In this document: positions 2,158-3,417 of the stretch, piece by piece | Numbering within the stretch: the first letter of the stretch is position 1 | How the letters are laid out: each line of letters begins with the position of its first letter | Virus record (IMG/VR): IMGVR_UViG_3300029514_000040 | Length of the DNA stretch: 5,643 nucleotides | Reading direction: 5' to 3' (one strand) | Origin: a virus | The notes under the pieces: model-generated | Told to the model about the DNA's origin: nothing | The model's input: only the letters and a program-made list of their open reading frames with translations | Databases searched by the model: none | Made by a program: the position numbers and the translations under genes

Positions 2158-2351
2158 TGTGAAAAAGTTGAAAACCATAAATTTGAAACATAACATCGTA
2201 AAAAATAAGCATATTTCAATGTTGAAAGGTTTGTTGAAAACTTGTTGAAATGTTGAAACACTTTACCAGACTAAAATCTATTGCGTATAACGATGTTGAA
2301 AAGTATGTGGAAAATGTTGAAAAGCATGAGTTTTCCACAAACTGTTGAAAA
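2158..2351 (+). repeat. Iteron array: direct repeats of GTTGAAA (extended form ATGTTGAAAAG)
   Basis: Perfect GTTGAAA heptamers start at 2167, 2221, 2233, 2244, 2252, 2295, 2316 and 2344, all in the same orientation. One-mismatch variants are TTTGAAA (2182) and GTGGAAA (2307). ATGTTGAAAAG occurs exactly twice, 21 bp apart (2293 and 2314). Several spacings are 8-12 bp. I did not spot the heptamer elsewhere in the genome by eye. Confidence 0.9.
2306..2339 (+). promoter_or_regulatory. Hairpin whose 9-bp stem is a DnaA-box consensus (candidate single-strand initiation / complementary-strand origin signal)
   Basis: TGTGGAAAA (2306..2314) and TTTTCCACA (2331..2339) are exact reverse complements with a 16-nt loop. 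TTTTCCACA fits the relaxed DnaA-box consensus TTWTNCACA. A third exact match is TGTGAAAAA at 2158..2166 (reverse complement TTTTTCACA). Confidence 0.45.
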
Positions 2352-3175: not shown

Positions 3176-3417
3176 TGCTGAGACATTATTATGCAATCTA
3201 TGACAAGGTGGCCAAGACCTTCAGCGGCCTTTTCGAGCAACAGAACGATGCAGTTGCAAGCAGGCTCTTCGAAAGCCAGCAGAAGAACAAGGACAGCTTT
3301 ATCAGCGTCAAGCCGGAAGACTTCAGGCTGCACTACATCTGCACCATGGAGGACGAGACAGGCGAAATCGTCGATAACGTCAACACGTGCGTATGTGAGG
3401 GCAAGCCCAATGAGTAA
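3175..3417 (+). CDS. VP5: VP5-like non-structural protein (80 aa)
   Basis: The protein is MLRHYYAIYDKVAKTFSGLFEQQNDAVASRLFE...PEDFRLHYICTMEDETGEI. The YxIYD...F...ND..A.R.F and PEDF.L...G..D..TGEI pattern resembles the conserved small VP5 family of Gokushovirinae as I recall it. Its position directly upstream of VP3 is syntenic. The start is coupled to the upstream stop. Confidence 0.75.
   Translation: MLRHYYAIYDKVAKTFSGLFEQQNDAVASRLFESQQKNKDSFISVKPEDFRLHYICTMEDETGEIVDNVNTCVCEGKPNE

Follow-up and report, generated by a model that had tools for sequence, protein, structure and literature searches.

The IMG/VR virus record IMGVR_UViG_3300029514_000040 (5643 nt, the whole stretch of DNA analyzed and hereafter "the window") comes from a gokushovirus whose circular genome measures 5554 nt; the remaining 89 nt are a terminal redundancy. 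Its array of GTTGAAA repeats, located between VP4, the sole replication protein of the genome, and a set of accessory genes, is a cluster of DnaA boxes within a complete host-type origin-unwinding module, which is conserved and whose architecture and polarity are those of chromosomal dnaA–dnaN origin modules. Host DnaA is very probably the binder, with the module acting as the unwinding element. Microviridae are the textbook rolling-circle single-stranded DNA (ssDNA) phages; gokushoviruses are common in gut viromes, and we know of no defined gokushovirus replication origin. The standard of comparison is the bacterial basal unwinding system (BUS), in which DnaA boxes arranged in tandem and in one orientation are separated by ~4 bp from three or more DnaA-trios (3'-GAT-5'), with an unwinding element beyond these (PMC8287927, PMC6669920).

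A probable DnaA-box array in an origin-like module

A sequence-only reading had claimed a non-random, replication-origin-like array in the main non-coding region. Location and shuffling bear this out, with binding as a prediction: the array sits in 613 nt of non-coding DNA that separate the VP4 stop codon (1899) from a 65-aa open reading frame (ORF) starting at 2513, all eight GTTGAAA copies then counted are present (2167, 2221, 2233, 2244, 2252, 2295, 2316 and 2344) with none elsewhere in the window, and 200 dinucleotide-preserving shuffles gave 0.91 copies on average, four at most and never eight. The two one-mismatch copies (TTTGAAA at 2182, GTGGAAA at 2307) and the exact 11-mer repeat (ATGTTGAAAAG at 2293–2303 and 2314–2324, 21 nt apart) were likewise recovered. 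Single polarity, also proposed, holds for the eight exact copies, all on the + strand; a reverse copy at 2331–2339, reading TTTTCCACA on the + strand, means that array polarity is not strictly uniform. This copy had been overlooked, as had TGTGAAAAA, the TAG run with the AT stretch, and the 9-mer nature of the repeat unit.

Unit and spacing statistics, computed on exact GTTGAAA copies pooled from 49 close and 52 distant relatives, define the repeat as the 9-mer TGTTGAAA(A/G), the reverse complement of TTTTCAACA. T occupies position −1 in 84–94% of the pooled copies, and the commonest start-to-start spacings are 9, 12, 8 and 11 nt. At homologous positions in relatives, G stands for the second T and yields TGTGGAAAA, which differs from the DnaA box TGTGGATAA at a single base. 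Genome-wide there are three matches to the strict DnaA-box consensus TTWTNCACA (2158, 2306 and 2331; 0.42 expected), all inside the module, where six of the eight matches to the relaxed pattern TTWTCMACA also lie (0.23 expected). The sequence-only reading remarked in passing that a single mismatch separates TGTTGAAAA from the reverse DnaA-box consensus, and this proved the key to the identity of the array. Related 9-mers have appeared in the literature: TT(T/A)TCAACA was proposed as the mollicute DnaA box, a consensus that a review doubts, and "ttttcaaca" was used as a "non-perfect DnaA box" (PMC3322544, PMC2671203).

Read 5' to 3' on the + strand, the module is preceded by a GC-rich imperfect hairpin containing CGCGCAC repeats (2058–2118), an inverted repeat flanking the AT-rich stretch. 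This AT-rich, T-rich stretch, tattttttattttataatata (2108–2130), is the candidate DNA unwinding element (DUE), and the 30 nt from 2110 (2110–2139) are 90% AT versus 51% for the genome. Between it and the trios stands the microvirus-specific ACTTGTTGTAG (2131–2141), a candidate VP4 nick or recognition site, followed by the DnaA-trio-like run TAG CCG TAG TAG TAG (2139–2153; 5'-TAG-3' equals 3'-GAT-5'), which holds the single exact TAGTAGTAG of the window, and by a G/C-rich 4-nt gap, GCAC (2154–2157). The trio-proximal box TGTGAAAAA (2158–2166; reverse complement TTTTTCACA, fitting TTWTNCACA) is in tandem with a second box, AGTTGAAAA (2166–2174; GTTGAAA core at 2167–2173, reverse complement TTTTCAACT). 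Further boxes on the same strand form a cluster of four (TGTTGAAAG, TGTTGAAAA, TGTTGAAAT and TGTTGAAAC, 2220–2259) and a group of three at 2294–2323 (TGTTGAAAA at 2294–2302, TGTGGAAAA at 2306–2314, which fits TTWTNCACA, and TGTTGAAAA at 2315–2323). The reverse box at 2331–2339, on the − strand, makes an inverted pair with TGTGGAAAA at 2306–2314, and the last box, again TGTTGAAAA, occupies 2343–2351 on the + strand.

The published BUS rule asks for a box with at most two mismatches located 0–16 bp from at least three NAN trios, together with a second box, and the mean gap is ~4 bp (PMC8287927). In the window, the first box TGTGAAAAA differs from TTATCCACA by two mismatches and lies 4 nt from the last TAG (the TGTGGAAAA of relatives has one mismatch); the second box AGTTGAAAA, for which up to four mismatches are allowed, is co-oriented and has three; the trio run at 2139–2153 is followed directly by GCAC; and the AT stretch lies beyond the trios, giving the polarity 5'-DUE-trios-gap-TGTGG...-3'. 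As far as sequence allows a check, the module is a match to every BUS feature save chromosomal location. Its polarity is that of Escherichia coli oriC (the sequence compared is 100% identical in >5000 E. coli chromosomes), where the T-rich 13-mers, GCACTGCCC and TGTGGATAA stand on one strand. It is also that of Bacillus subtilis, in which the top strand, complementary to the trios, reads 5'-CTACTATTACTTCTACTA-3' with boxes on its 5' side (PMC10201434), and of Clostridioides difficile, whose top strand reads 5'-CACC-TAC TAC TAT...-3' (5'-CACC-TACTACTATTACTACTA-3') with the unwinding element next (PMC7561715).

Several other readings of the repeats were tried and rejected. A coding repeat is contradicted by spacings of 8, 11, 43, 56 and 28 nt, which break the frame, and by frames that are not conserved; no + strand ORF of at least 40 aa spans the array, and some relatives' ORFs read VENLLKVLK through it. 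As an array of −35-like promoter elements the region offers one weak TTGAAA-17-TAACAT match only. No Rfam match was found in 2120–2360, and a whole-window scan gave only sub-threshold chance matches elsewhere. Finally, an ssDNA structural element was dismissed, the array (2100–2365) having no special ssDNA fold (z = −0.26) and only a local TGTGGAAAA/TTTTCCACA hairpin being predicted.

Conservation in gokushoviruses and counterparts on bacterial chromosomes

The array region is 70–95% identical in gut gokushoviruses of human, pig, monkey, mink, dog and raccoon (~45 GenBank genomes). Of 49 IMG/VR relatives retrieved via VP4, 45 have the array, and the exceptions checked are truncated contigs. 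An IMG/VR pattern scan for three TGTTGAAA copies recovered it also where VP4 is only 31–49% and VP1 43–55% identical. Lineage specificity, one of the options left by the sequence-only reading, is thereby refuted, as the array occurs in ~130 gokushovirus genomes with VP4 down to 31% identical. Many non-microvirus matches of the same scan were coding tandem repeats, and the scan alone was insufficient as proof that the arrays of double-stranded DNA (dsDNA) phages are kin to the viral one.

All 97 unique array-bearing gokushovirus genomes (VP4 31–100% identical) contain the module. Its common order in array sense is GC hairpin, AT stretch, ACTTGTTGTAG, (N3)-TAG-TAG-TAG, a gap of ~4 nt, TGTGGAAAA/TGTTGAAAA, GTTGAAAA and more boxes, and (TAG)3 or longer is found in 89 of the 97. 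The GC-rich hairpin always abuts the AT stretch in all clades and differs in sequence by clade, and the AT-rich stretch holds the same position in most microvirus modules shown. The gap reads GGGC, GCAC, AGTA or GGGA and is often G-rich. Most relatives carry TGTGGAAAA at the trio-proximal position, and the second box adjoins the first in the great majority of listed microvirus modules, although it is sometimes degenerate (GTTGAAT, GTTGATA). Conservation was assessed on 37 representatives <85% similar to one another, drawn from 124 microvirus modules, a set that superseded an earlier alignment of five near-identical homologues. Identity to the window was 79% in box cores and 93% in ACTTGTTG plus trios, as compared with 47% at inter-box positions and 44% upstream, in the AT stretch, and none of 2000 circular shifts attained the observed box-core conservation.

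KT264799, deposited as a complete circle of 5179 nt, lacks the long array and retains an AT stretch, ACTTGTTG, five TAGs, the gap GGGA and a pair of boxes, which points to the unwinding core as the invariant part and to the distal array as auxiliary. B. subtilis offers a parallel: boxes 6 and 7 are indispensable there, as are the trios, and the distal boxes have a helper role (PMC6669920). In clade B, the most distant one (VP4 31–36% identical; genomes L054, L061, L084, L098, L116, L123, L140, L156 and L161), the module in its entirety is found between VP2 and VP4 and runs opposite to the genes; the array adjoins VP4 in all clades, downstream in A and C and upstream in B. The spacing pattern of 54/12 nt is kept, indicating that the clade B module is the same module and not a convergent array. 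Occurrence in both orientations relative to the genes, together with the lack of an ssDNA fold, argues for function on the double-stranded replicative form. The reverse box TTTTCCACA is kept in clade A, and clade B genomes shown have a reverse TTTCCAC after the array. The spacer that follows the first two boxes (2174–2220 in the window; 45–55 nt) varies by clade and keeps a loose AAC G(N)T...ACG T, exemplified by aaacataacatcgtaaaaaa, ttaacgctaaagcgtaaa and ttaacgttactacgttt when the spacers of the window, L055 and L140 are compared, and by ttaaacgccgtaactactg in the dsDNA phage contig L145.

Box number itself varies from 2 to >10 across genomes. High and variable numbers would suit a DnaA sink, in which ~12 boxes per replicative form titrate DnaA and so block or re-time host initiation, and the clade A array stands upstream of a consensus promoter (2458–2485) that DnaA might tune to growth state; titrating or regulatory DnaA-box clusters such as datA are established in bacteria. 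We nevertheless regard a sink or switch as rather unlikely: the invariant part is an unwinding core for which neither a sink nor an operator has any need, KT264799 retains two boxes only, and the inverted clade B module between VP2 and VP4 has another relation to promoters.

Counterparts on chromosomes were found by scanning metagenome contigs with the pattern TAGTAG-N3-9-GTKGAAA-N1-3-GTTGAAA, which gave at least 120 loci. The matches listed, to which the following counts refer, comprise at least 36 microviruses, at least 28 bacterial contigs beside dnaA/dnaN (detected by tblastn with B. subtilis DnaA and DnaN sequences), one anomalous contig (L195) and at least 55 others. In 26 of the 28 bacterial loci the match lies inside the dnaA–dnaN spacer with trios on the bottom strand, which is the layout of B. 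subtilis incC; where the fetched piece includes dnaN, the match ends 53–136 bp upstream of it (581 bp in one locus). Eleven of the 28 come from one species group, so that the listed loci represent ~18 distinct DnaA C-terminal sequences. At these chromosomal origins, 9-mers of the TTTTCAACA type fill the DnaA-box positions, and the AT-rich stretch lies on the dnaN side of the trios. The spacers of L208, L266 and L268 bear dense GTTGAAA/GTGGAAA arrays in the same style as the virus, that of L196 has TAG-CCG-TAG-TAG-TAG exactly like the window, and TAG runs with CCG/TCG interruptions occur in chromosomal spacers as well. Because the same boxes stand in dnaA–dnaN spacers, the GTTGAAA 9-mers hold the DnaA-box positions of gut Clostridia origins, and the viral module would be a copy or mimic of the chromosomal origin core.

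These counterparts bear on the idea that the repeats are iterons for virus-encoded VP4 or a small accessory protein, the resemblance to origins being convergent or irrelevant. The array does always adjoin VP4, Reps of rolling-circle and CRESS type frequently recognise repeats close to where they nick, and ACTTGTTG, confined to microvirus modules, stands beside the array. Yet the same boxes, trios, gap and polarity recur in 26 dnaA–dnaN spacers and in dsDNA phage contigs without VP4, and VP4 is only 31–49% identical between clades with an identical 9-mer. The classical gokushoviruses SpV4, phiMH2K and Chp2 possess VP4, and neither an array nor a BUS-like module was found in them. Most genomes with the array lack the 65-aa and 68-aa ORFs, and the ORF and Pfam content of the window and of these genomes revealed no virus-encoded candidate binder that co-occurs with the array. 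A viral binder is accordingly quite improbable, and the viral candidates put forward from sequence alone (VP4, orf65 and orf68) find no support, the boxes being shared with chromosomes that lack viral proteins. The plasmid and viral models suggested at the same time fare no better: a theta-origin iteron array is contradicted by the absence of an iteron-type Rep from the genome, a unit of 9 bp and not 17–22 bp, and repeats shared with chromosomes; a parC-type centromere by the absence from the genome of ParR/ParM and of partition ORFs or Pfam matches; and CRESS Rep-iterons, again, by the missing iteron-type Rep and the 9-bp unit.

The bacteria carrying GTTGAAA boxes, to which the following tally is confined, also offer clues to the host. 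Twenty-four of 26 chromosomal DnaAs with an alignable C-terminus have the recognition helix DH(S/A)T..(Y/H), not the canonical DHTTV.H (e.g. GGRDHSTIVYA and NKNHSTMTIHY versus canonical GGRDHTTVIHA; loci include L208, L266, L281, L204, L217, L169 and L170). This variant may be a specificity change matching the C-to-A substitution at box position 6. The DnaA relatives of three bacterial loci are Oscillospiraceae/Ruminococcus sp., Hominimerdicola/Ruminococcus spp. and a very common gut Clostridia/Eubacteriales species, and the promoters of the window are Firmicutes-type with a TG-extended −10. Boxes, trios and DnaA variants together suggest Ruminococcus/Oscillospiraceae-type Clostridia as likely hosts. 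A contig from a Clostridia metagenome-assembled genome (L050, VP1 46% identical) was discarded as a host link, having no array and providing no usable connection.

The anomalous human gut contig L195 (13 402 nt) contains at nt 55–541 a microvirus fragment (487 nt: VP4 3' end, terminator and module) that is 97% identical to L022/L016 and is fused, at a shared GAGTTTTCCACAAA, to the chromosome of a common gut Clostridia bacterium in its rpmH–dnaA spacer (compare L285:2480–3010). The junction is no more than a shared stretch of 14–24 nt and includes a shared TTTTCCACA box; the DnaA of this contig (L195:787–2157) has a helix reading DHSTILY. As proof of integration at oriC it was rejected, since eight other contigs with identical DnaA lack the insert; L195 is either chimeric, through assembly or library preparation, or a rare product of recombination at DnaA boxes. 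Such a junction, a hint of recombination or mis-assembly at these boxes, and a layout nearly identical to chromosomal origin modules would suit a module that is a passenger, a host oriC fragment gained by recombination and of little or no use to the virus. What makes this most improbable is that the module is kept in ~130 genomes of only 5–6 kb with VP4 down to 31% identical, that its boxes and trios are selectively conserved relative to spacers, that the core stays when the array is lost, and that a microvirus-specific element is precisely embedded in it.

Clostridia as likely hosts also bring the regulator Spo0A into view: a single mismatch separates its 0A box (TGTCGAA) from TGTTGAAA, and in B. 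subtilis oriC such boxes overlap DnaA boxes. In sporulating cells phage phi29 shuts itself down through 0A boxes, and a weak BLAST match to a phi29-like Bacillus phage falls in its early/late promoter region. That match is explained by a TTGAAA −35 element. The 0A core (TGNCGAA) has a near-invariant C, a position that is T in nearly all copies here; the core observed is TGT(T/G)GAA, C is not among the variants seen, and the alternative G (GTGGAAA) brings the repeat closer to the DnaA box and further from the 0A box. Trios, a fixed 4-nt gap and an AT stretch have no role in Spo0A binding either, and sites for Spo0A or another host regulator are thus a very remote prospect.

A candidate nick site and the predicted mechanism

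The element that sets the viral module apart is ACTTGTTG/ACTTGTTGTAG, found with at most one mismatch just upstream of the trios in 97 of 97 IMG/VR genomes. Among the metagenome matches listed, ACTTGTTGTAG (at most one mismatch) occurs in all 36 microvirus modules, in none of 28 chromosomal modules and in one of 56 other loci, there as a coding-sequence coincidence. In the dsDNA phage contig L145, an AT stretch, TAGTAGTAG, GGGC and boxes are present, and ACTTGTTG was not found. Near-identical motifs occur in the two classical gokushoviruses SpV4 (L414, ~505–555: ggggcatat-att-ACTTGTTATA-atatgcccc) and phiMH2K (L415, ~3290–3340: agttcggctac-ggaccct-ACTTGTTGTA-a-gtagccgaact), in both cases on the coding strand and in the loop of a perfect hairpin. 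The shared loop motif is ACTTGTTRTA (ACTTGTT(A/G)TA), with GC-rich stems of 9–11 bp; in phiMH2K it lies in non-coding DNA, and the SpV4 record annotates the capsid gene only. Rolling-circle nick sites usually take the shape of a conserved motif exposed in a loop; in phiX174 the (+) origin is a site of 30 bp within gene A, and cleavage occurs inside CAACTTG^ATA (CAACTTG^ATATTAATAAC). From the loop motif and this usual form we infer ACTTGTTGTAG as the VP4 nick or recognition site, an assignment that we hold tentatively, and ACTTGTT(A/G)TA in a hairpin loop as a candidate family-wide rolling-circle nick site.

We propose the following mechanism. Host DnaA-ATP would bind the boxes on the double-stranded replicative form through domain IV, and a DnaA oligomer, starting at the pair of boxes nearest the trios, would grow along the TAG trios on one strand, opening the duplex there and at the AT-rich stretch. 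The opened region would expose ACTTGTTGTAG to VP4, an HUH-type rolling-circle initiator that needs ssDNA. DnaA would in this way license or assist viral rolling-circle initiation, and could also allow the host helicase or primosome to load on the replicative form. The long distal array, variable and dispensable, would recruit or concentrate DnaA around an invariant core of AT stretch, ACTTGTTG, trios and two boxes. In the array-bearing lineage, opening by DnaA would replace hairpin extrusion as the means of presenting the nick site as ssDNA. We consider this full scheme of DnaA-assisted origin firing probable. The wider proposition, that a large group of gut gokushoviruses has fused a rolling-circle origin (nick site ACTTG/TTGTAG) to a captured host DnaA unwinding module, so that DnaA, and not supercoiling or a hairpin, opens the origin, is possible but somewhat doubtful.

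A number of observations weigh against these proposals. Most boxes (TGTTGAAAA) differ from TTATCCACA at C6, a position important for E. coli DnaA, and may bind with low affinity or call for a DnaA variant; the motif is also, as noted, close to the 0A box, and phiX174, the classical Microviridae paradigm, to our knowledge needs no DnaA. A DnaA filament would occupy the same strand as the putative nick site, putting the access of VP4 in question. Concerning the nick site, Chp2 has no such motif, a one-mismatch match to the 10-mer appears in 28% of SpV4 shuffles, and a match to the 11-mer appears in 11% of phiMH2K shuffles. The clade B motif (ACTTGTTGTA) is on the non-coding strand only, and the A-rich, T-poor bias of the coding strand is equal in all clades, clade B included; it follows that clade B packages the antisense strand, unless the motif serves a different function.

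What would be new here is an ssDNA phage whose rolling-circle origin houses a DnaA unwinding module of chromosomal type, the two being apparently fused. Such arrays were said to have no place in the classical description of phiX174 or gokushoviruses, and we found no description of it in the literature: full-text searches gave no report linking Microviridae or gokushoviruses with DnaA boxes or iterons, no trios on a phage were apparent from the listed titles and abstracts of work on bacteriophages and DnaA-trios, and searching by motif string returned mostly primers. A conserved box, trio and DUE module joined to a family-specific motif is a concrete candidate origin for gokushoviruses. It implies dependence on, or manipulation of, the host master initiator, gives a sequence-based clue to the host, and suggests a route to plasmid-like persistence of lytic-looking gut microviruses. 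If the proposal is correct, phage replication would be tied to host initiation potential, the replicative form might replicate or persist like an oriC plasmid, and the clade with the inverted module would package the strand antisense to its genes. DnaA-trio modules also seem to occur on mobile elements of several kinds (microviruses and several dsDNA phage contigs) and not on chromosomes alone.

Genome context and relation to known systems

Every gene of the window is on the + strand. VP2 (16–876) is followed by VP4 (877–1899), which has the HUH-type Pfam domain REP_ORF2-G2P (Rep_ORF2-G2P) and whose translation contains the A-protein-like motif YVAGYVTK. The accessory ORFs of 65 aa (2513–2710) and 68 aa (2756–2962) have no Pfam match; VP5, VP3 and VP1 come after them. 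Between the VP4 stop and the module lie three strong hairpins (1905–1941, 1985–2010 and 2058–2118), the last being the one that flanks the AT stretch, and 1900–2135 has an ssDNA fold of z = −7.8. These hairpins at 1900–2118 are separate elements that may serve as terminators and/or complementary-strand priming sites. Downstream of the array and outside the conserved core, a perfect-consensus promoter (TTGACA-16 nt-TATAAT with TG before the −10, 2458–2485, + strand) serves the downstream accessory genes. A dif/XerCD-like site at 2428–2455, whose left arm matched B. subtilis dif by eye at ~9/11 with a poor right arm, was dropped. The segment 2344–2730, comprising the last box, a GC-rich stem-loop (2392–2431), the promoter, and the 65-aa ORF with its terminator, is ~86–91% identical in gokushoviruses otherwise too diverged for megablast (KT264788, KT264789 and MG945657), which suggests that this accessory cassette recombines independently. 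The coding strand of the window and all related genomes is A-rich and T-poor (A 34–38%, T 17–18%), with T at only 11–17% of the four-fold degenerate sites of VP1; the phiX174 viral strand is T-rich, the opposite of this bias.

Similar boxes were also seen on other mobile elements. Contigs of dsDNA phages or prophages (L145:1780–1980, L176:13990–14250, L181:12700–13000, L257 and L262) have the AT stretch, TAG trios, GC gap and GTTGAAA boxes without ACTTGTTG, and a prophage region of an isolate genome (L162:1000–2200) has ~60 GTTGAAA copies on both strands plus TTTTCCACA. In GC-rich gut phages, GTTGAAAAC arrays with no visible trios lie ~260 bp downstream of a replication-organiser-like gene with Lin1244_N (DUF4373) (L155:5393–5440, L104:6911–6947 and L081:4615–4650, with L130 listed alongside), and in L111 (2200–2510) an array lies inside an HTH_36 initiator-like gene beside an ORF that by eye is SSB-like. 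The Lin1244_N- and HTH_36-linked arrays are likely phage origins using the same boxes. A further IMG/VR scan with the canonical box (TAGTAG-N-TGTGGATAA, 15 specified bases) gave at least 120 matches, mostly by chance; no microvirus is among those listed, which says nothing on absence. A few IMG/VR viral contigs (L311, L330, L345 and L395), some only 4.4–5.4 kb long and without a VP1 relative, have TAGTAG(TAG)-GC gap-TGTGGATAA-TGTGGATAA modules with canonical boxes; these may be other small BUS-using replicons.

Among known systems, theta-plasmid iterons, parC sites and CRESS iterons share with the array its short direct repeats, irregular spacing near a helical turn and AT-rich non-coding setting near a promoter; unlike theirs, its repeats are not replicon-specific but common to bacterial chromosome origins. 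Clusters such as datA and the A site of the R6K "ABC primosome" (a hairpin with a DnaA box) are likewise DnaA boxes outside oriC, and in ssDNA the pair 2306–2314/2331–2339 would give an R6K-like hairpin with a duplex DnaA box in its stem. Those elements are without an oriented box pair, trios and an unwinding element, and the viral array is without significant ssDNA structure. Plasmid and phage origins with DnaA boxes (P1 oriR, pSC101, F and RK2) and mollicute oriC plasmids are also extrachromosomal users of host DnaA; as far as is known, they pair the boxes with their own Rep and iterons or are cloned chromosomal origins, whereas the viral module has DnaA-trios and no theta-type Rep, its partner being an HUH rolling-circle initiator. 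A shared point is the box variant TTWTCAACA, which has been proposed for mollicutes (discussed in PMC3322544).

The phiX174 origin belongs to the same family and initiator class and has an ACTTG core beside AT-rich DNA, but it lies inside a gene, has neither DnaA boxes nor trios, and is melted by supercoiling and A protein. The viral module departs from the bacterial BUS in its place on a 5.5-kb ssDNA phage and not beside dnaA/dnaN, in the extra ACTTGTTG between DUE and trios, and in boxes that are mostly the TTTTCAACA variant. With the B. subtilis incC BUS it has in common two tandem boxes, gap, trios and AT element in the same polarity and further distal boxes (Richardson 2016/2019; Pelliciari 2021; PMC8287927, PMC6669920, PMC10721633), and it is nearly superimposable on the dnaA–dnaN spacers of Ruminococcus/Oscillospiraceae-type and other bacteria recovered in the scan.

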